Counted from the first letter of the stretch, positions 1,342 to 14,347 are shown. The stretch is 43,558 nucleotides of DNA from an uncultured Candidatus Saccharibacteria bacterium (GCA_964395025.1 CAYMZP010000003.1:1-43558), one strand, 5' to 3'. Numbers and translations are program-made. Notes: generated from the sequence alone by a model not told the origin.

Positions 1342-3720
1342 TTAGAAACTTTGCAAGTCTGCCCAATTCTCCCCCACTTTTGCTTCAGTCAAAATAGGTA
1401 CATGGTTTCGCTCCTCTTCTCCCACTACCGATTCCATAATTTCTTTAATCTTTGGCGCTAGTTCCTTCAAATGTTCCGTGCGCACTTCGTATACAAGCTC
1501 GTCATGTATCTGTAGGAGTAGGTATGCGTCTTCTGCGCGCCCTTCTTTTTTCAACAGCGCATCAATACGTACCATGGCGAGCTTTATGATGTCTGCCTGT
1601 GTGCCCTGTATGGGTGCATTGATGGCGGTGCGCTCTGCCTGCGCACGCACATACGGAAGTGGTGACTTCATTTCGGGGAACTGACGACGACGTCCATAGA
1701 GTGTTTCCGTGAAGCCGTTTTTACGTGCAAAGCCCTTTGTTTCCTCCAAGTATTCTGCCAAGCGCTTAAAGGTACGGAAGTAGTCGTCCATAAACTGATG
1801 CGCTTCGGCAATAGAGGTCCCAAGTTGAGCTTTAAGTGCATTTACACCCATGCCATAGAGAATGCCGAAGTTTATGATTTTTGCGCGACGACGCATTTCT
1901 GCATCAACGTTTTCTGGAGCAACCGCAAACACGCGCGCTGCTACCTCGCGATGCACATCTCTCCCACTCTTAAAGATGTTACAGAGCACTTCGTCTCCTG
2001 AAAGAAATGCCGCGATGCGTAGTTCAATCTGCGAGTAGTCAAGCGCGAGAAGCGTAAACCCGTTGCTTGCGGTAAACGCACGACGTATGGCACGTCCACG
2101 CTCGGTGCGTATAGGAATGTTTTGAAGGTTGGGGTCCTGACTTGCCATACGGCCGGTGGTCGTACCCATTTGCAAGAACGTTGCGTGAAGTCGTGAGTCG
2201 CTATCTAGGAGTGGTGGAATGGCATCCAAGTAGGTACCGAGTAGTTTTTGTATTTGACGATATTCCAAAATATCACTCACGATTGGATGTGCGTCTTTAA
2301 TTTTCTCAAGTTCACTTTCTTTTGTAGAGCGCTGTCCCCCCGCAGTCTTTTTTGCGCTCGGCACCTTAAGACCGAGCGTGTCAAAAAGCACTTCACCAAG
2401 CTGTTTTGGAGAACTCACATTAAACGTCTTCCCCGCCGTTTCGTATATGCGCGCTTCTATGAGAGAGAGTTCTGTGAGGTACGTTTTTGAAAGTGTGCTT
2501 AGTGTGTTTTTATCAACGGTAATTCCTCTCTCCCGCATTGCGTTTGCAATCGCGATAAGCGGACGCTCTATTTCCTCATACACAAAACTGAGGCGTCCTG
2601 TTTTTTGTAGCTTGTTCGTAAGTTCTGTATGCGCCTCATGTATTGTTTCGGTCTTTGTAAACGCAAGAATGTCTTCCCGTTCGGGATTAGTAAAATCCGA
2701 ATGCAAAAGCCAGAGCATGAGGCGTGCTTCTTCAAGTTCTTTTGGGTCTACGTTTTCTGTAGAGACCTCTTCAGTTTCTTCTTCGTCTCCTCCACCGAAC
2801 ACTGCTGTGGCGCGGTTTCTAAGTGAGCGAAAACCGTATTCGTCAAAGAGTGAAAGTATCGGCGGAAGCTTTGCCGTATCAATAAATACGTTGCGTGGAA
2901 GCGAAAAAGCAATAGGTGCATCAGTACGAATGGTGGCAAGCATTTTTGAAAACCGTGCATCCTCTTCATGCTCTTTGAGGAGCCCAATGATGCGCGGTTT
3001 TATTCCTGCAGAAAGAAATGGTTCTTCGCTCTTTTTCAGCGTCTTATACAAGTTTTCTATGGAACCAAAGGTGGTGATGAGCGTTGTGGCGGTTTTCTCC
3101 CCAATGCCGGGCACACCTTTTATGTTGTCAGACGGGTCTCCGCGAAGCCCTTTGTAGTCAGGGATGAGTTTAGGGCTGAAACCAAAGCGTGCTTCTACTG
3201 CTTTCTCGTCATACAAAATGGTGTCGTTCAGTCCTTTTTTCAGCGTATATACTTTCACGCTCTCACCCTCTATGAGCTGAAGCGTGTCCATGTCGCCAGA
3301 CGCAATAATTACTTCCACACTCTTGTCTTTTACATACATGGACGCGATGGTTCCTAAAATGTCGTCTGCCTCAAATCCTTCTCGCTCATATATAGGAATG
3401 CCAAACGCAGAAAAGACGTCGCGAGAAGTGGTGAGCTGTGCAGAAAGTGCGTCGTCCGTTTTGGTGCGTGTTGCTTTGTAGTCTGCGTATGCTTCGTGAC
3501 GCACGGTCGGTTTTGGGAGGTCGTAACACGCTACAAGATAGTCAGGACGAAGGTCGGTAATGATGCGAAGCAACATTGCCGAAAGGCCGTAGAGCGCACC
3601 GGCAGGAGCCCCCGAGGGGGACGTAAGTTCTGGAAGCGCGTGGTATGCACGATGAATAATGGCGTGTGCATCCAAAAGTACGAGTCGGCGCGCGTCGGCG
3701 GTTTCTGTTTTCTTAGCCAT
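1342..3720 (-). CDS. polA: DNA polymerase I (5-prime nuclease plus polymerase domains; 3-prime-5-prime exonuclease domain apparently missing)
   Basis: ORF 1342..3732; probable ATG at 3720 (MAKKTETADARRLVLLDAHAIIHRAYHAL). 5-prime nuclease motifs: GFEADDILGT, GDMDTLQL, GVPGIGEKTA. Pol A motifs: LLALDYSQIELRI, RRRAKIINFGILYGMG, QIHDELVYE. Confidence 0.95.
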   Translation of the reverse strand: MAKKTETADARRLVLLDAHAIIHRAYHALPELTSPSGAPAGALYGLSAMLLRIITDLRPDYLVACYDLPKPTVRHEAYADYKATRTKTDDALSAQLTTSRDVFSAFGIPIYEREGFEADDILGTIASMYVKDKSVEVIIASGDMDTLQLIEGESVKVYTLKKGLNDTILYDEKAVEARFGFSPKLIPDYKGLRGDPSDNIKGVPGIGEKTATTLITTFGSIENLYKTLKKSEEPFLSAGIKPRIIGLLKEHEEDARFSKMLATIRTDAPIAFSLPRNVFIDTAKLPPILSLFDEYGFRSLRNRATAVFGGGDEEETEEVSTENVDPKELEEARLMLWLLHSDFTNPEREDILAFTKTETIHEAHTELTNKLQKTGRLSFVYEEIERPLIAIANAMRERGITVDKNTLSTLSKTYLTELSLIEARIYETAGKTFNVSSPKQLGEVLFDTLGLKVPSAKKTAGGQRSTKESELEKIKDAHPIVSDILEYRQIQKLLGTYLDAIPPLLDSDSRLHATFLQMGTTTGRMASQDPNLQNIPIRTERGRAIRRAFTASNGFTLLALDYSQIELRIAAFLSGDEVLCNIFKSGRDVHREVAARVFAVAPENVDAEMRRRAKIINFGILYGMGVNALKAQLGTSIAEAHQFMDDYFRTFKRLAEYLEETKGFARKNGFTETLYGRRRQFPEMKSPLPYVRAQAERTAINAPIQGTQADIIKLAMVRIDALLKKEGRAEDAYLLLQIHDELVYEVRTEHLKELAPKIKEIMESVVGEEERNHVPILTEAKVGENWADLQSF

Positions 3721-4159
3721 GGTGTGTTTCAAACGCTATGCGACGCACTCCTTCATTTTCTACAGTAATACTAATTTTTACTGAGGGCACATGAAGCATG
3801 CCCTTCACCTGTTCAGGCCACTCTAAAACTACAAGTGTGTCCGGGTCGCTCATAAGCTCATCAAACCCGAGCGATGCAAGTTCGCTCTCGTCTTTCAAAC
3901 GGTATGCGTCTATGTGCGCAAGACGTTTAAACGGCTGTCCTTTGGGGAGCGCGTATATTTTTTCTAGTACGAATGTTGGGCTCGTGACTTCCACTTCCAC
4001 ACCAAGCGCTTTTGCGAGTGCCTTTGTAAAAGCGGTCTTCCCTGCACCAAGCTCACCAGAAAGGGTTACGAGAGTGGCATAGCGAGATGGCGCGAGCGTT
4101 TTTGCAAAACGTTCCGCTTCTTCTTCAAGTAGAGAAAGTGTCGGGAGAAGTTTTTCCAT
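3713..4159 (-). CDS. tsaE: tRNA threonylcarbamoyladenosine biosynthesis protein TsaE
   Basis: ORF 3713..4210. The internal start MEKLLPTLSLLEEE is preceded by TACAAT+6 nt. P-loop LSGELGAGKTAFTKALAKALG and the SPTF motif are typical of TsaE/YjeE. Its end overlaps the polA start. Confidence 0.85.
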   Translation of the reverse strand: MEKLLPTLSLLEEEAERFAKTLAPSRYATLVTLSGELGAGKTAFTKALAKALGVEVEVTSPTFVLEKIYALPKGQPFKRLAHIDAYRLKDESELASLGFDELMSDPDTLVVLEWPEQVKGMLHVPSVKISITVENEGVRRIAFETHHG

Positions 4160-4180
4160 CCCCCTATTGTACCAATGTAT

Positions 4181-4217
4181 AAAAAAGAAGAGCCCCAAGC
4201 GTGCAAGCACGCTTGGG
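4181..4217 (-). terminator. Intrinsic terminator after the GC-rich gene
   Basis: cccaagcgtgc (4194-4204) pairs with gcacgcttggg (4207-4217). On the minus strand it is followed by a T run (plus-strand aaaaaa at 4181-4186). Confidence 0.7.
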
Positions 4218-4240
4218 AACTCCTTTGTGGACCGTCCCTG

Positions 4241-4798
4241 CTAGCAGGGGAAGGTCCGGCCGGTCCGGCCGTCGCGGCAGATCTGCCCCACAGGGATTGC
4301 GGGGCCGACGGGCTGCGGACGGTAGGTTGCCGAAGGCGGACGACGCGAATCGTCCATCCCTTCGATGCCGTCGATGATCAGCGCGGCGCCCATCAGAACC
4401 TTCGCGAGGTCTGAGGTACCACGCTGGATCGGGGGATACCCGCCACCACCGTAGACCGGTGCCGGAACCGGAACACCGACAGGCCTCCCGAAGGTCAGAC
4501 GATAGCCTTGGTGGGCCGCCGCCTGCTGGCAGGTGTCCCCGTCCGCCGCGTAACCGCGGGCGAAGGGGCAGGTTCCGTACCCACGAGGATCCGGACCACT
4601 GTAGGGATAGTCCCGCAGAGGCGCGATAGTCAGCGCCGTCGGGGGTTGCCCGCCGAAGCCGTACGACGCCAGAGACGGGCCAGCCGACTCCGTGGCCGAG
4701 CAACCGTACCCTTTCGGGCACGAGTCCTGCGAGTCCTGCGCGAACGCAGGGCCGGCGAAGGCGAAGGCGGCAACAATAGAAACAACAAGCGATTTCAT
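4241..4798 (-). CDS. Secreted Gly/Pro/Tyr-rich hypothetical protein, compositionally foreign (high GC)
   Basis: ORF 4241..4867. The internal start MKSLVVSIVAAFAFAGPAFAQ is a signal peptide, with a GAAAGGA Shine-Dalgarno sequence upstream. Third codon positions are mostly G/C, unlike the neighbouring genes. It has its own promoter and terminator. Several other long ORFs overlap it in other frames, as expected for high-GC DNA. Confidence 0.6.
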   Translation of the reverse strand: MKSLVVSIVAAFAFAGPAFAQDSQDSCPKGYGCSATESAGPSLASYGFGGQPPTALTIAPLRDYPYSGPDPRGYGTCPFARGYAADGDTCQQAAAHQGYRLTFGRPVGVPVPAPVYGGGGYPPIQRGTSDLAKVLMGAALIIDGIEGMDDSRRPPSATYRPQPVGPAIPVGQICRDGRTGRTFPC

Positions 4799-4855
4799 CT
4801 GGGGTCCTTTCGTGACCTCTGATATAGGTACGACCACCGTACCTTTCGCTCTTAT

Positions 4856-4884
4856 ATAATACACCATTAAAAGTGCCTTGTCAA
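4856..4884 (-). promoter_or_regulatory. Near-consensus sigma70-type promoter for the GC-rich gene
   Basis: On the minus strand: TTGACA (plus 4879-4884), a 17 nt spacer, then TATTAT (plus 4856-4861). A roughly 55 nt leader follows, containing the hairpin aggtacg/cgtacct. The -35 lies inside the palindrome ccttgtcaagg. Confidence 0.6.
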
Positions 4885-4957
4885 GGTCGCTAACGGCTCG
4901 TACCTAAGCCCTGTTTTGGCGACCTGGTTCTGTACGCAGGTGGTATCATGTGTCCAC

Positions 4958-6643
4958 ATGAGCGACACAGGAGACGGCCACACACACTTTGATACAAAGG
5001 CGGAAGACGAAAAGCTGGCGCTTCTGCGCGAGAAAGAGCAGGAAGACTTGGCAGAAGTGCTCGCCGAAAAGAACGGCCTTCCCTACACCGACCTCACCGT
5101 GGTGCCAGTAGCAATGGACGCGCTTCGTCTTATTACAGAAGCAGATGCACGTGAGGCGCGCGTAATTGCTTTTGAAAAAAACGGAAAGAAAGTGTCTGTG
5201 GCTATTACCAATCCCGATACGCCAGCACTTCTAAAGGTACTGCAAGACTTAGAGAATCAGGGCCTTACCCTCTCTCGCTACTTTGTTTCGGAACGCTCCA
5301 TTGAAAAAGCGCTCACTCGGTACAAAGACCTCTCTCTCGCACAAGTCTCTTCCGCTGGGGTGTTTAGTGTTTCTGCAGATGAGTTTTCCGAGCTTCAGTC
5401 ACAGGTGGCAGACCTCCCTTCCCTTCAAGCACACCTTTCCGAAATGATTTCTGCAAAGAGCGGGCGTATTTCGCGCCTCCTTGAAGAAGTCCTTGCAAGT
5501 GCGTTCTCCATGAAAGCATCTGACATACATATTGAGCCTGAGGAAGAGGCAATCCGTATGCGTTTTCGTATTGACGGACTCCTCGCAGATGCGTTTTCTT
5601 TTGACGCAAAAACATACCGCACACTTTTGTCTCGCATAAAGCTCCTTTCGGGAGTGAAGTTAAATGTTTCAAACCGTGCACAAGACGGCCGTTTCTCTGT
5701 GGCGATTGGTGAAAACGAAGTAGAAATACGTACTTCCATCATTCCCGGAAATTATGGCGAGTCAGTAGTACTTCGTATTCTTGATCCGCGCGGTATTGAG
5801 CGCACGCTTGAAGACTCTGGAGTCAACACAAAACTCCTTGCGCGTCTGCGTGGAGAAATAAAAAAGCCAAACGGCATGCTCCTTACCACCGGTCCCACCG
5901 GAAGCGGTAAAACCACGACACTCTATTCGTTTATGAAAGAGATGTACTCTCCTGACCTAAAAATTGTGACCATTGAAGACCCGATTGAGTATCACTTGGC
6001 TGGTATCGTACAGACACAAACAAACGGCAAGGACTATACCTTTGCTTCTGGTCTTCGCTCTGTGCTTCGCCAAGACCCTGACGTCATCATGGTGGGAGAA
6101 ATACGAGACGCAGAAGTAGCGCAAACCGCAGTACAAGCCGCACTCACTGGACACTTTGTTTTCTCCACGCTCCATACAAATAATGCTGCAGGAACATTCC
6201 CTCGCCTTATTGACCTTGGTATTGACCCGAAACTTTTTGCTTCTGCAGTAACTGTAGCTATGGCTCAACGTTTAGTCCGCACGCTCGATGAAAAAACGAA
6301 AAAGGCGCGCCCTGCAACAGAAGAAGAAAAGAAAATGATGGAAGCGGTACTTTCTACGCTCACCGACAAAAGTTTGCTCCCCGCTTCACTAGATACGGTG
6401 TATGACGCGGTGCCGAACGAAGCAACAGGAGAAACAGGATACAAGGGCCGTACTGGTGTACACGAAGCCATTTTCATGGACGACGAGCTCGGAGAATTTC
6501 TACGAAACAATCCTGCGGAAGGAGATATTGCAAAACATGTACTTCGTCAGGGTTTCCCTACCATGGCACAGGACGCAGTGTTAAAAGTACTGAAAGGAGA
6601 AACGACATTGGAGGAAATTGCACGCGTGGTAGAGCTCCCTTGA
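4958..6643 (+). CDS. pilB: Type IV pilus / type II secretion family ATPase (PilB/GspE)
   Basis: ORF 4916..6643; ATG at 4958 (MSDTGDG). N-terminal GSPII_E-like domain. Walker A GPTGSGKTTT, Asp box, Walker B DPDVIMVGEIRD, His box TGHFVFSTLHTN. No cysteines at all, so the usual tetracysteine motif is absent. Confidence 0.9.
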   Translation: MSDTGDGHTHFDTKAEDEKLALLREKEQEDLAEVLAEKNGLPYTDLTVVPVAMDALRLITEADAREARVIAFEKNGKKVSVAITNPDTPALLKVLQDLENQGLTLSRYFVSERSIEKALTRYKDLSLAQVSSAGVFSVSADEFSELQSQVADLPSLQAHLSEMISAKSGRISRLLEEVLASAFSMKASDIHIEPEEEAIRMRFRIDGLLADAFSFDAKTYRTLLSRIKLLSGVKLNVSNRAQDGRFSVAIGENEVEIRTSIIPGNYGESVVLRILDPRGIERTLEDSGVNTKLLARLRGEIKKPNGMLLTTGPTGSGKTTTLYSFMKEMYSPDLKIVTIEDPIEYHLAGIVQTQTNGKDYTFASGLRSVLRQDPDVIMVGEIRDAEVAQTAVQAALTGHFVFSTLHTNNAAGTFPRLIDLGIDPKLFASAVTVAMAQRLVRTLDEKTKKARPATEEEKKMMEAVLSTLTDKSLLPASLDTVYDAVPNEATGETGYKGRTGVHEAIFMDDELGEFLRNNPAEGDIAKHVLRQGFPTMAQDAVLKVLKGETTLEEIARVVELP

Positions 6644-11683: not shown

Positions 11684-12784
11684 TTACTGATTCATCGGCA
11701 TCACGAGATATAAGAACGAGGTGTCACCCACCCCTTTAAGGACAAGTGGTCGACCAATTCCTGCAGTAGAAACCGTCATGCTTTCACTATGCATAAGTGA
11801 AAGAGGCGCCTGAATGTATCGGTGGTTAAAAGAGAGCTCTAGAGAACCCCCAGTAAGACGCGCAGGAATGCTTTCTGAAGCTTCCCCTATATCATTGTTA
11901 CGTGCTGAAAACACCAACGAACTCTCTTTCCCATCAAACCCAAGACGTATCTTTTGAAATGAGTCAGAGAAAACAGCGGTACGTTTTAGTGCAGATTCAA
12001 AATCTTTCCTAAGAATGGTCGCTTCTGCAGAAAATGTTTTTGGAATAATTTGTGTGTAGTCAGGATATTGAAGTGCCACTAGTCGTGTTGTAACCGTACC
12101 GAGGTTCCACGAAAATGACGCGAGATGTTCTCCAAAAACAATAGTGAGTTCTGAATCAGGTATGGTCTGCACAATATCAAGAGCATTTTTTGCAGGAATA
12201 AGAACAGAAAAAGGAATAATACCTTTTTCTACCGGTACCTTCTTTTCCGCAAGACGAAAAGAGTCTGTAGCAACTGCTTTAACTGTATTATTCTCTGCCG
12301 AAAGGAAAACACTCGCGAGTTCCGGACGAACTGTTGAAGGAGAAGCACAGGAAGCAACGGTACTGATAAGACTCTTAAAAAGGGTCCCTGGAAGTATTAT
12401 TTTTGTTTTCTCGTCTTCCGGACTTGGGAGTGCAGGAAAATCATCATAGGAGAGTGTTTTGACTGTTCCTCGTGCTTTTCCAGAAGAAAAAATAACAACA
12501 TCTTCTTTCTGCTCGAGTGTAAGCAATCCTTCTGAAGAAAAAGAATTGGTTATTTCCCTTAAAACATTTGCTGGAAGTGCCACAGAACCCTCTTTTTTAA
12601 TTGTTCCTGGAATACGAAGTTGTATTCCTGTTTCTAGGTTTGTTGCTTGAAGAGTAATGTTTCTGTCAGCAACAGTGAGGGCTATTCCTGAAAGAGAAGG
12701 GAGTGTTCCTGCTCTACGTTCTGCAAAACGAGAAACAATCCCCACTGCAGAACTAAACTCTTTTTTTTCTAAAGTGATAAACAT
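11684..12784 (-). CDS. dnaN: DNA polymerase III beta sliding clamp
   Basis: 366 aa with a three-domain clamp-like pattern, a C-terminal MPMNQ-type ending, and a position directly downstream of dnaA. Confidence 0.9.
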   Translation of the reverse strand: MFITLEKKEFSSAVGIVSRFAERRAGTLPSLSGIALTVADRNITLQATNLETGIQLRIPGTIKKEGSVALPANVLREITNSFSSEGLLTLEQKEDVVIFSSGKARGTVKTLSYDDFPALPSPEDEKTKIILPGTLFKSLISTVASCASPSTVRPELASVFLSAENNTVKAVATDSFRLAEKKVPVEKGIIPFSVLIPAKNALDIVQTIPDSELTIVFGEHLASFSWNLGTVTTRLVALQYPDYTQIIPKTFSAEATILRKDFESALKRTAVFSDSFQKIRLGFDGKESSLVFSARNNDIGEASESIPARLTGGSLELSFNHRYIQAPLSLMHSESMTVSTAGIGRPLVLKGVGDTSFLYLVMPMNQ

Positions 12785-12832
12785 AATTATTAGGACTTAT
12801 TAGTGCTGTTGATATGGGGATTTTGTATAGCG

Positions 12833-12848
12833 CCTTGTATATACAAGG
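12833..12848. repeat. Perfect 16 bp palindrome ccttgtatatacaagg with a plus-strand T run
   Basis: Lies in the dnaA-dnaN spacer, preceded by gcg and followed by tttttt. Related to the palindromes at 4876-4886 and 43179-43214. Confidence 0.6.
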
Positions 12849-12990
12849 TTTTTTCATTGGAGGTAGAAAATGAAGCTGGGGAAAACAAGGAAAAGAAAAA
12901 CGAGATTTTGGGGAGAAGGTAGGAGGAGAAGAAAGAACTCAACATGCTCTTGTTAGTATTCCCCAGTATTGTCAGCGTCTTTTCCATACC

Positions 12991-12999
12991 TTATACACA
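12991..12999 (+). promoter_or_regulatory. DnaA-box-like 9-mer TTATACACA
   Basis: Fits TTATNCACA. Lies just after the dnaA stop, in the dnaA-dnaN spacer. Confidence 0.4.
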
Positions 13000-13000
13000 A

Positions 13001-14347
13001 CTATACTAACAACCCCCGAATGTCTTGAATCTCTTTTGCAAGATCAACATCATCCACCACCTCTCGCTTCACTTTTTCGCAAGAATGAATAACGGTGGTG
13101 TGGTCACGCCCGCCCAGCTTACTACCGATAGTCGGATAGGACACACTAAAGTCTTCTCGCAGGATATACATAATCACCTGACGAGGGCGTACCACTTCCC
13201 TACGGCGGGTTTTTTCATATATGGAGTCCTCATCTATTCCATAAAACTCTGCCACCTTAGATACCACATGCTTCACAGAAACTGACTTTGTTGGTCGCGA
13301 GAAAGAACGAAGTGATTGACGCACTTCAGCCAAATCTGGTGCCCCTCCCTTTACTTGTGCATGACAGACGATGGAATTTATAACTCCTTCAAGTTCGCGT
13401 ATAGAACCGCCCACAGATGTCGCCACATGCTCTATTACATCATCGCTCAGGAGCACGCCGTGGAGCGCTGCTTTTTTACGCACAATAGCGATGCGGGACT
13501 CTGTATCAGGTTCACCAATATCTACCGTCATGCCACTCGCAAGACGTCCGCGTACACGGTCGGCAATGTCCGGTATTGCCTGTGGGGGTCTATCAGACGA
13601 GAAAATGATTTGTTTGTTGTTGTCGTGGAGCGCGTTAAACAGATGGAAAAGCTCTTCCTGCGTTTTCTCTTTTTTCGCAAGGAACTGAATGTCATCCATA
13701 ATAAGGAGGTCGTACTGGCGGTACTTTTCCTTAAAACGGTTACCGTTACCTTGCTGAATTGAGTCAGTGTACTCAACAGCGAACTTCTCCGAAGTGAGGT
13801 AATAGACCTTCCGCGTCGGGTAGAGCTTTTTAAACTGGTTGCCTATTGCTTGAATAAGGTGTGTCTTCCCTCGCCCTGTTTCTCCGTAGATAAAGAGCGG
13901 ATTGTACGTAATGCCAGGACGTTCTATTGCTGCTTTTGCAGCCGCGTACGCAAGTTCATTAAAAGAACCTATAACAAAGGTTTCAAAGGTATATCGCGGA
14001 TTGAGATTATCGCTTTTGTTTATGTAGAACTCATCAAGGGGTAGTTCAGTATTTGGCCGTTCTCGCTTCTCGGTCTTAGGTTTTCGCCCAGCGTCTTTAA
14101 CAATAAGATACTCGATGTTTCTAAACTCGTATGAGACGTCTCGTATTATCTTGAGGAGGAGCGTATGGAACTTCTTTAAGTACCAGTCTCGAAAAAACTG
14201 ACTTGGAACGCCCACATACACAATCCCCTCTTCAATTTTTACGATGGCGCTTTCGCGGAACCACGTATTAAAGTTGGCGGGAGAGATAGAAAGTTCCACT
14301 TGAGCGAGCACGTGTTCCCAAAGCTCATGAGGATCTTGTTTATTCAT
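13001..14347 (-). CDS. dnaA: Chromosomal replication initiator DnaA
   Basis: ORF 13001..14398; start at MNKQDPHELWEHVLAQVELSISPANFNTWF. Walker A GETGRGKTHL, Walker B LLIMDDIQF, sensor and box VII motifs. C-terminal DNA-binding motif GGRDHTTVIHSCEKV. Confidence 0.95.
   Translation of the reverse strand: MNKQDPHELWEHVLAQVELSISPANFNTWFRESAIVKIEEGIVYVGVPSQFFRDWYLKKFHTLLLKIIRDVSYEFRNIEYLIVKDAGRKPKTEKRERPNTELPLDEFYINKSDNLNPRYTFETFVIGSFNELAYAAAKAAIERPGITYNPLFIYGETGRGKTHLIQAIGNQFKKLYPTRKVYYLTSEKFAVEYTDSIQQGNGNRFKEKYRQYDLLIMDDIQFLAKKEKTQEELFHLFNALHDNNKQIIFSSDRPPQAIPDIADRVRGRLASGMTVDIGEPDTESRIAIVRKKAALHGVLLSDDVIEHVATSVGGSIRELEGVINSIVCHAQVKGGAPDLAEVRQSLRSFSRPTKSVSVKHVVSKVAEFYGIDEDSIYEKTRRREVVRPRQVIMYILREDFSVSYPTIGSKLGGRDHTTVIHSCEKVKREVVDDVDLAKEIQDIRGLLV

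Follow-up and report, generated by a model that had tools for sequence, protein, structure and literature searches.

The O-antigen and capsule 'flexible islands' of free-living bacteria are hypervariable replacement loci situated between conserved core genes. A locus of comparable outline is described here from an uncultured Candidatus Saccharibacteria bacterium, on the contig C3 (GCA_964395025.1 CAYMZP010000003.1:1-43558), which in its full length (43,558 bp) is called the window in the following. Between tsaE and a pilB-type ATPase gene the window carries a single gene for a small, GC-rich exported protein. Like the flexible islands, this tsaE-pilB slot has a fixed position between conserved anchors, a variable content which includes the empty state, surface or exported products and an atypical base composition. 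Unlike the islands, it holds one monocistronic gene of about 0.3-0.8 kb and no multi-gene glycan cluster, and the frame of promoter and terminator is kept while the body of the open reading frame (ORF) changes. A further difference is that similarity between slot products follows relatedness in the sample, so that fast divergence fits better than swapping. A preliminary description of the window had suggested that the gene was acquired recently, for example from a host or neighbour of high G+C, with an assembly or binning chimera as the alternative. Neither is supported by the present analysis, since slot counterparts exist in relatives, one of them (genome G020) shares the composition, no donor was found and the borders are free of scars. 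The gene is probably a resident occupant of a conserved but hypervariable slot for secreted proteins, with a coding composition that is maintained locally.

Native genes of atypical composition are miscalled as transferred by parametric methods (Azad and Lawrence 2011, PMC3089488). The window gene resembles the genes discussed there in being a strong outlier in G+C content and codon usage which is nevertheless probably resident, and composition alone is again a poor guide to recent transfer. It is unlike them in that the deviation is extreme (+0.31 in the G+C content of third codon positions, GC3; z = 8.8) and recurs at one locus, where the GC3 of slot genes follows that of the flanking genes with a slope of 0.52. 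This recurrence, together with the slope, suggests a gene-specific force and not stochastic variation. Literature searches turned up no account of a tsaE-pilB slot, nor of GC-rich genes for secreted proteins in the candidate phyla radiation (CPR); the hypervariable gene treated in PMC6851277 is of another kind.

The source genome comprises 695 kb in 43 contigs (completeness 97.7%, contamination 0.8%), and its relatives according to pilB are metagenome-assembled genomes of Patescibacteria, Paceibacteria type. Within the genus, pilB is present in all of the 41 genomes searched (the window's own included) and tsaE in 39, in most of them next to pilB. The two genes are adjacent and divergent at each of the 69 loci that hold both, in genomes of 0.27-0.69 G+C. 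The gap between them measures at least 350 bp at 50 loci (filled slots) and less than 150 bp at the other 19 (empty slots). Small gaps without a gene are seen, for example, at positions 1660-1730 of locus L113 (G021) and 1655-1715 of locus L114 (G003), and also in G035, G022, G032, G033, G036 and G012. An ORF with a signal peptide or a lipobox lies on the tsaE strand in 43 of the 50 filled gaps, and the products are usually rich in Tyr, Gly and Pro and have paired Cys residues. Among 48 slot genes of relatives, 28 encode a lipobox-like sequence and 20 another signal peptide. Half of these 48 are preceded by a promoter with at least 11 of 12 consensus matches and 29% by one with all 12 (shuffled sequences 0.4 and 0%, respectively), and a terminator hairpin with a T-run follows within 110 nt of the stop codon in 38 (shuffles 14%). 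Furthermore, the first 15 codons show a dip in G+C across the 48 genes (0.456 vs 0.591).

The window gene shares the traits of this class: the position between divergent anchors, the tsaE strand, a signal peptide (by inspection) and a promoter and terminator of its own. The native character that had been ascribed to its regulatory context holds, and slot genes of relatives have promoters and terminators of the same kind. Most slot proteins cannot be aligned with one another, and the few significant pairs come from nearest relatives by tsaE, without any discordant pair. This limitation of similarity to the nearest tsaE relatives is what vertical descent combined with very rapid divergence predicts.

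A strikingly GC-rich stretch of about 560 bp had been reported, and positions 4243-4753 indeed have 69% G+C in a genome of 49%. A hand count of 46 G+C in 60 nucleotides for 4261-4320 was reproduced exactly; the corresponding count for 4141-4200 came to 26 instead of 27. The interval 4201-4800 has a G+C content of 0.670, compared with 0.40-0.55 in all other 600-bp bins of the window, and C3:4201-4700 (0.686) ranks first among the 6,760 500-bp windows of the genome (mean 0.491, sd 0.032). The opposite extreme of the window lies at 12001-13200, where G+C falls to 0.40-0.42 against about 0.49.

At the three codon positions the slot gene has G+C contents of 0.67, 0.61 and 0.75, the ORF means of the genome being 0.57, 0.44 and 0.47. 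The same amino acids encoded with native codon usage predict a G+C content of 0.572 and a GC3 of 0.43, whereas 0.679 and 0.745 are observed (z = 8.8). About 45% of the excess is therefore due to the content of Gly, Pro, Ala and Arg and the remainder to codon choice. This agrees with the G/C-ending, foreign-looking codons noticed before; the suggestion that composition might be driven by amino-acid content only, put forward as a possible refutation of import, fails since that content explains less than half of the excess. Codon choice consists above all in the avoidance of A at the third position (A3), which stands at 5.4% compared with 25.6% genome-wide, and third-position T (T3) remains at 20%. 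In comparison with native genes, CTG is raised from 8 to 75% and TCG from 12 to 67%, and CCA drops from 33 to 0%. Codons 1-15 are native-like (0.49 G+C), and the GC-rich block starts at codon 16.

The recurrence of this composition in the slot was followed in the 48 slot genes, from genomes of 0.32-0.69 G+C. The regression of slot-gene GC3 on flank GC3 has a slope of 0.52 (r = 0.72) and meets the line y = x at 0.71; in the control regression of tsaE against pilB GC3 the slope is 0.92 (r = 0.93). The mean excess of the slot genes is +0.19 at a flank GC3 below 0.35, +0.15 at 0.35-0.50, +0.08 at 0.50-0.65 and -0.04 above 0.65. Since the excess shrinks with rising flank GC3, the shift is directional towards about 0.7 and not a symmetric mixing. 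In the low-GC congener G020 the gene in the same slot has a G+C content of 0.67 and a GC3 of 0.79 with flanks of 0.49, and its product possesses a signal peptide ending in SPAFA and six Cys residues, one of them C-terminal. The nearest relatives by pilB with a filled slot have a slot GC3 of 0.73-0.85 at a flank GC3 of 0.44-0.78, with G063 (0.56) and G027 (0.65) as exceptions. Orthologues of the same composition at the same position had been named as evidence that would speak against import. This is largely what the relatives offer: the position is filled, the G020 gene matches in composition and GC3 is raised across the slot genes of low-GC genomes.

A further case of persistent GC-rich coding lies outside the slot. 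A handful of other genes in the genome share the signature (GC3 0.72-0.77, A3 about 0.09). One of them (locus L103, G000:C28:765-1478, minus strand; GC 0.60, GC3 0.74) encodes a 237-aa signal-peptide protein which has the putative cleavage site SAPATA/QDS (the slash marks the cut), ends in GGSKTF and belongs to no Pfam or NCBIfam family. True homologues with 33-42% identity occur in 7 of 40 congeners. Those in the low-GC genomes G022 (L104) and G020 (L106) have a GC3 of 0.78 and 0.85 and an A3 of 0.06 and 0.04, respectively, in flanks of 0.49-0.51 G+C. Members of the family, 36-42% identical, show a GC3 of 0.74-0.85 in three genomes with flanks of about 0.49-0.51. A deeply diverged family with plausible vertical descent has thus kept GC-rich coding in several low-GC lineages, and GC-richness here persists and is not a mark of recency. 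The best reading is that GC-rich, A3-poor coding is recurrent and persistent in the slot genes and in at least one other secreted-protein family, and does not betray a recent import.

Selection on the messenger was considered as a cause. Folding of the coding sequence (CDS) was compared with permutations of synonymous codons: 14 slot genes with a GC3 excess gave a mean z of -2.9, and all of the 18 slot genes tested were negative. For 12 ordinary genes of the window genome the mean was -0.5 (sd 1.7). Taken as a group, the slot genes speak for selection on the structure or stability of the mRNA. In absolute terms the window gene folds at -0.49 kcal/mol per nt, compared with -0.25 to -0.35 for native genes. 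Translational selection was ruled out as the cause because the genes for GroEL, L7/L12 and RpoB have an ordinary GC3. The idea that all secreted proteins are encoded by GC-rich genes was rejected as well: GC3 averages 0.459 in 69 signal-peptide-like ORFs and 0.471 in all others.

The features of the locus, in window coordinates, are as follows.

4884..4856, minus strand: sigma-70-type promoter TTGACA-17-TATTAT (TTGACA at 4884-4879, TATTAT at 4861-4856), 11/12 consensus matches
4799..4855, minus strand: 5' leader of about 57 nt with a 7-bp hairpin, a second weak hairpin and the Shine-Dalgarno sequence
4810..4805, minus strand: Shine-Dalgarno sequence AAAGGA, 6 nt upstream of the ATG, read directly from the sequence
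4798..4241, minus strand: CDS of the slot gene, 185 aa, MKSLVV...RTFPC, by translation
4736..4798, minus strand: signal peptide, residues 1-21, MKSLVVSIVAAFAFAGPAFA with QD following the cleavage site, by inspection only
4241..4735, minus strand: mature protein of 164 aa and stop codon, by translation
4243..4753, no strand: GC-rich block, 0.693 G+C, limited to codons 16-185 of the CDS
4218..4183, minus strand: intrinsic terminator, 11-bp stem CCCAAGCGTGC/GCACGCTTGGG, loop of 2-4 nt, T-rich tail
3713..4159, minus strand: tsaE, left anchor, codirectional with the slot gene
4958..6643, plus strand: pilB-type ATPase gene, right anchor, divergent from the slot gene

Most elements of the unit had been recognised correctly in the preliminary description. 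The CDS translates to exactly the 185-aa signal-peptide protein quoted there, the Shine-Dalgarno sequence stands 6 nt before the ATG, and the terminator, with its 11-bp stem and T-run, lies 23 nt past the stop codon. The almost perfect promoter is the sole site with 11 of 12 matches in 3900-5200, a region whose shuffled versions contain 0.3 such sites on average. In the leader, which had been called structured, the 7-bp hairpin is present, and the folding excess is modest (z = -1.97 relative to dinucleotide-shuffled sequences, at a minimum free energy of -17.0 kcal/mol). The hairpin is formed by AGGUACG and CGUACCU at 4826-4844, and the second, weak one spans the Shine-Dalgarno sequence and the start codon. 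Rfam returned sub-threshold chance matches only.

The signal peptide consists, by inspection, of the n-region MK, a hydrophobic core and the cleavage motif A-F-A. The mature protein is mostly of low complexity and, as had been stated, rich in Gly (16%), Pro (13%), Tyr (6%) and Arg (7%), with 10% Ala in addition. Eight Cys residues had been counted, but only six are present, at positions 27, 33, 77, 90, 174 and 185. By position they form the three pairs C27/C33, C77/C90 and C174/C185, the last residue being the C-terminus. The genome encodes five DsbA-like genes. Two of them (profile PF13462; G000:C8:2579-4580) flank a VKOR-like ORF at C8:3698-3931, which at 21 bits stays below the threshold of 27.5, and three more lie elsewhere, a rich oxidative-folding set for a genome of 0.7 Mb. 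With the DsbA-like genes and the sub-threshold VKOR-like ORF, extracytoplasmic disulfide formation is therefore plausible.

Homology searches, which had been proposed as a way to the donor lineage, led to none. The slot protein has no family in Pfam at E ≤ 10 and no match in NCBIfam or among PDB sequences; a look-up of the exact protein found it not on record, and a word search of 5.8 billion clusters returned only the window's own protein. No homologue was detected in the genomes of 60 relatives, in 241 million records of JGI metagenomes, or in phages and plasmids, and no real one among about 15 billion proteins overall. An exhaustive HMMER search gave E = 2.5e-23 to giant CpaC-like secretins (P0003-P0006) with 13-16 BON repeats. 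A single unit reaches 14 bits, and the 99-bit sum arises from counting one weak match 16 times; the match was rejected as proof of homology, its E-value being inflated by the summing of 13-16 repeats. These secretins have an unusual architecture, with a length of 1,427-2,905 aa and 13-16 or more tandem BON domains before the secretin domain.

The comparison with the BON domain (PF04972) concerns residues 56-102, which align with the repeat unit (L..APLR...PD..G.....ARG.A..G.....AAA) and for which strands and a helix are predicted. The full-length single-sequence AlphaFold model has a mean predicted local distance difference test score (pLDDT) of 58.7, with residues 62-102 confident as strands and one helix (pLDDT 80-88). 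When the segment was folded alone, the pLDDT was 56.8 and the confident patch was not reproduced. Unlike a BON domain, the window protein reaches 9-14 bits per unit, has no match to the Pfam BON model and finds nothing below E = 3 with Foldseek against the PDB; the lower score comes from a profile built from the BON repeats, a circular test. None of the other slot proteins resembles BON. The resemblance is regarded as an unproven lead.

BA14K proteins (PF07886) are small secreted proteins of alpha-proteobacteria. The window protein is like them in its small size, its signal peptide, its richness in Tyr, Arg and Gly and its Cys-bounded C-terminal loop. Membership in this family was rejected, as PF07886 gives no match even at E ≤ 10.

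The main rival to a resident occupant is the replacement of an allele within the clade, by which the coding body would have been overwritten or inserted from a high-GC congener, while promoter, initial codons and terminator remained native. This is unlikely. Genomic G+C within the genus ranges over about 0.48-0.69, and the slot genes of its high-GC members naturally have 0.63-0.71 G+C, that of G025 (GC 0.71, GC3 0.85) having also a signal peptide ending in AAFAQ; yet no similar allele was found in any sampled genome or metagenome, and the codons of the window gene (T3 0.20, Val 60% GTT, Arg 50% CGT) are unlike those of the sampled high-GC congeners, among which pilB of G002 and G026 reaches a GC3 of 0.87. 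The compositional border, within the signal peptide and just ahead of the terminator, is in keeping with such a replacement. On the other hand, the GC3 shift of the slot genes is directional and crosses at 0.71 instead of the pool mean, and the detectable similarity of slot proteins tracks tsaE relatedness throughout. Several results do weigh against residency, and some of them favour replacement. The gap between tsaE and pilB measures about 60-100 bp and holds no gene in G021, G003, G035 and G022, the four congeners nearest in pilB identity, whose loci are among the 19 empty ones; a gain in the window lineage and repeated loss explain this with equal parsimony. Presence in relatives, which was to be checked according to the preliminary description, is thus divided between counterpart small secreted-protein genes at the same position in most filled slots and an empty slot in the closest four congeners; from the latter it follows that the slot gene has been gained or lost repeatedly inside the genus. 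With a GC3 excess of +0.31 and +0.34, respectively, the genes of the window and of G020 are the strongest cases, and they lie farther above the composition trend than any other slot gene, by about 2 sd. The window protein forms no pair with any other slot protein at E < 0.2, the G020 product included, and only position, frame and composition tie it to the slot class. The folding excess of the window gene itself (z = -2.1 and -1.5 in two runs) falls inside the range of ordinary genes. Finally, purB, a gene with the same GC3-rich signature, occurs in 2 of 40 congeners, with 53% identity in the high-GC G002 and a weak match in G036, and is probably a true horizontal acquisition. The GC-rich gene class of the genome is therefore heterogeneous.

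Import from an unrelated high-GC host or neighbour is quite improbable. The strongly non-native codons, the Gram-negative-like look of the AxA/Q signal peptide and the existence of other patchily distributed GC3-rich genes such as purB would agree with it. It would need an exact swap of codons 16-185 within a pre-existing native frame common to the relatives, and the slot borders carry no flanking direct or att-like repeats, no tRNA and no mobility genes (integrase, transposase). The about 15 billion proteins searched yield nothing beyond the repeat-inflated match to BON secretins, the JGI metagenomes, phages and plasmids nothing at all, and the same anomaly stands in the same slot of G020. 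Still less probable is a non-functional ORF, be it a frame left open by chance in DNA of high G+C, a gene in decay or a sequence arisen de novo; the GC-rich block would then serve another purpose or none. Its orphan state outside all Pfam and NCBIfam families, the mostly low confidence of the AlphaFold model and the presence of several long frames, a second one of 185 aa included, could be read in this way. However, only the frame of the slot gene has a Shine-Dalgarno start, a canonical signal peptide and the order GC3 > GC1 > GC2; it fits the promoter-terminator frame exactly and has counterpart signal-peptide ORFs in the great majority of filled slots, and the alternative frames match no Pfam family. 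An assembly or binning chimera is hardly credible. The composition itself, and nothing further, speaks for it, whereas the block is internal to a contig of 43.5 kb without Ns, has syntenic native genes on either side and starts and ends inside one coherent gene unit, so that two precise mis-joins would be needed; moreover, the separate genome entry G020 repeats the pattern.

Other genes of the GC-rich class deserve mention. Two signal-peptide genes, C26:5620-6291 (plus strand) and C7:9314-9907 (minus strand), have 0.61-0.62 G+C and a GC3 of 0.70-0.77; their products carry AxA/Q-type cleavage sites (VPAFA/QEN and AIA/QPT) and belong to no Pfam or NCBIfam family. Genes for cytoplasmic proteins with the signature are purB (C7:3955-5448), pyrF (C8:11932-12636), C23:1441-2145 (Trans_reg_C and DUF1153) and C16:1212-1868, all with a GC3 of 0.72-0.76 and an A3 of about 0.09-0.10. 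The C-terminal Phe and alternating pattern of the 237-aa protein on C28 are reminiscent of the beta-barrels of outer membranes, a structure that one would not expect in a CPR cell.

For a resident gene the following course of events may be proposed from the sequence signals. The gene would be transcribed as a monocistronic unit from its near-consensus sigma-70 promoter up to its own intrinsic terminator. The 185-aa precursor would be exported by the Sec pathway and cleaved after AFA, and the mature protein of 164 aa is probably stapled by three short-range disulfides with the help of DsbA-like oxidoreductases. Outside the cell the product may be an abundant surface or host-contact component; the abundance is suggested by the consensus-grade promoter, and the role by the quick turnover of the sequence and by its location next to the gene for the pilus motor. 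The turnover appears to be so fast that relatives with the same slot lose recognisable similarity. A gene-specific force would shield the composition from the mutation pressure of the genome; one candidate is selection that acts on the stability or folding of the mRNA.

A more far-reaching reading is put forward tentatively. The tsaE-pilB locus of Paceibacteria could be a dedicated, very strongly promoted, terminator-insulated one-gene slot whose secreted product diverges beyond recognition from species to species and whose coding DNA is kept at a private composition across genomes of 0.32-0.69 G+C; in the subclade of the window this would be a GC3 of about 0.73-0.85 with almost no A at third positions. 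If true, a gene-specific force acts on synonymous sites, for which selection for a compact and long-lived mRNA of a heavily secreted protein, the avoidance of an A-dependent nuclease or recurrent overwriting are candidates. The slot would then break the rule by which synonymous sites mirror the mutation bias of the genome, and would be a systematic source of false calls of horizontal gene transfer in CPR genomes.

When CPR genomes are annotated, a sharp GC island with foreign codons calls for a check of synteny before it is put down to recent horizontal transfer or contamination, as the slot is filled across many genomes and GC-enriched in those of lower G+C. For molecular evolution, the slope of 0.52 against 0.92 and the GC-rich C28 family provide a testable case of gene-specific synonymous constraint. 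With regard to the biology of the CPR, whose host interactions are hardly known, the slot draws attention to an exported protein that is encoded next to the gene for the pilus motor, is probably abundant and evolves rapidly; this product is a candidate for a cell-surface or host-contact factor.

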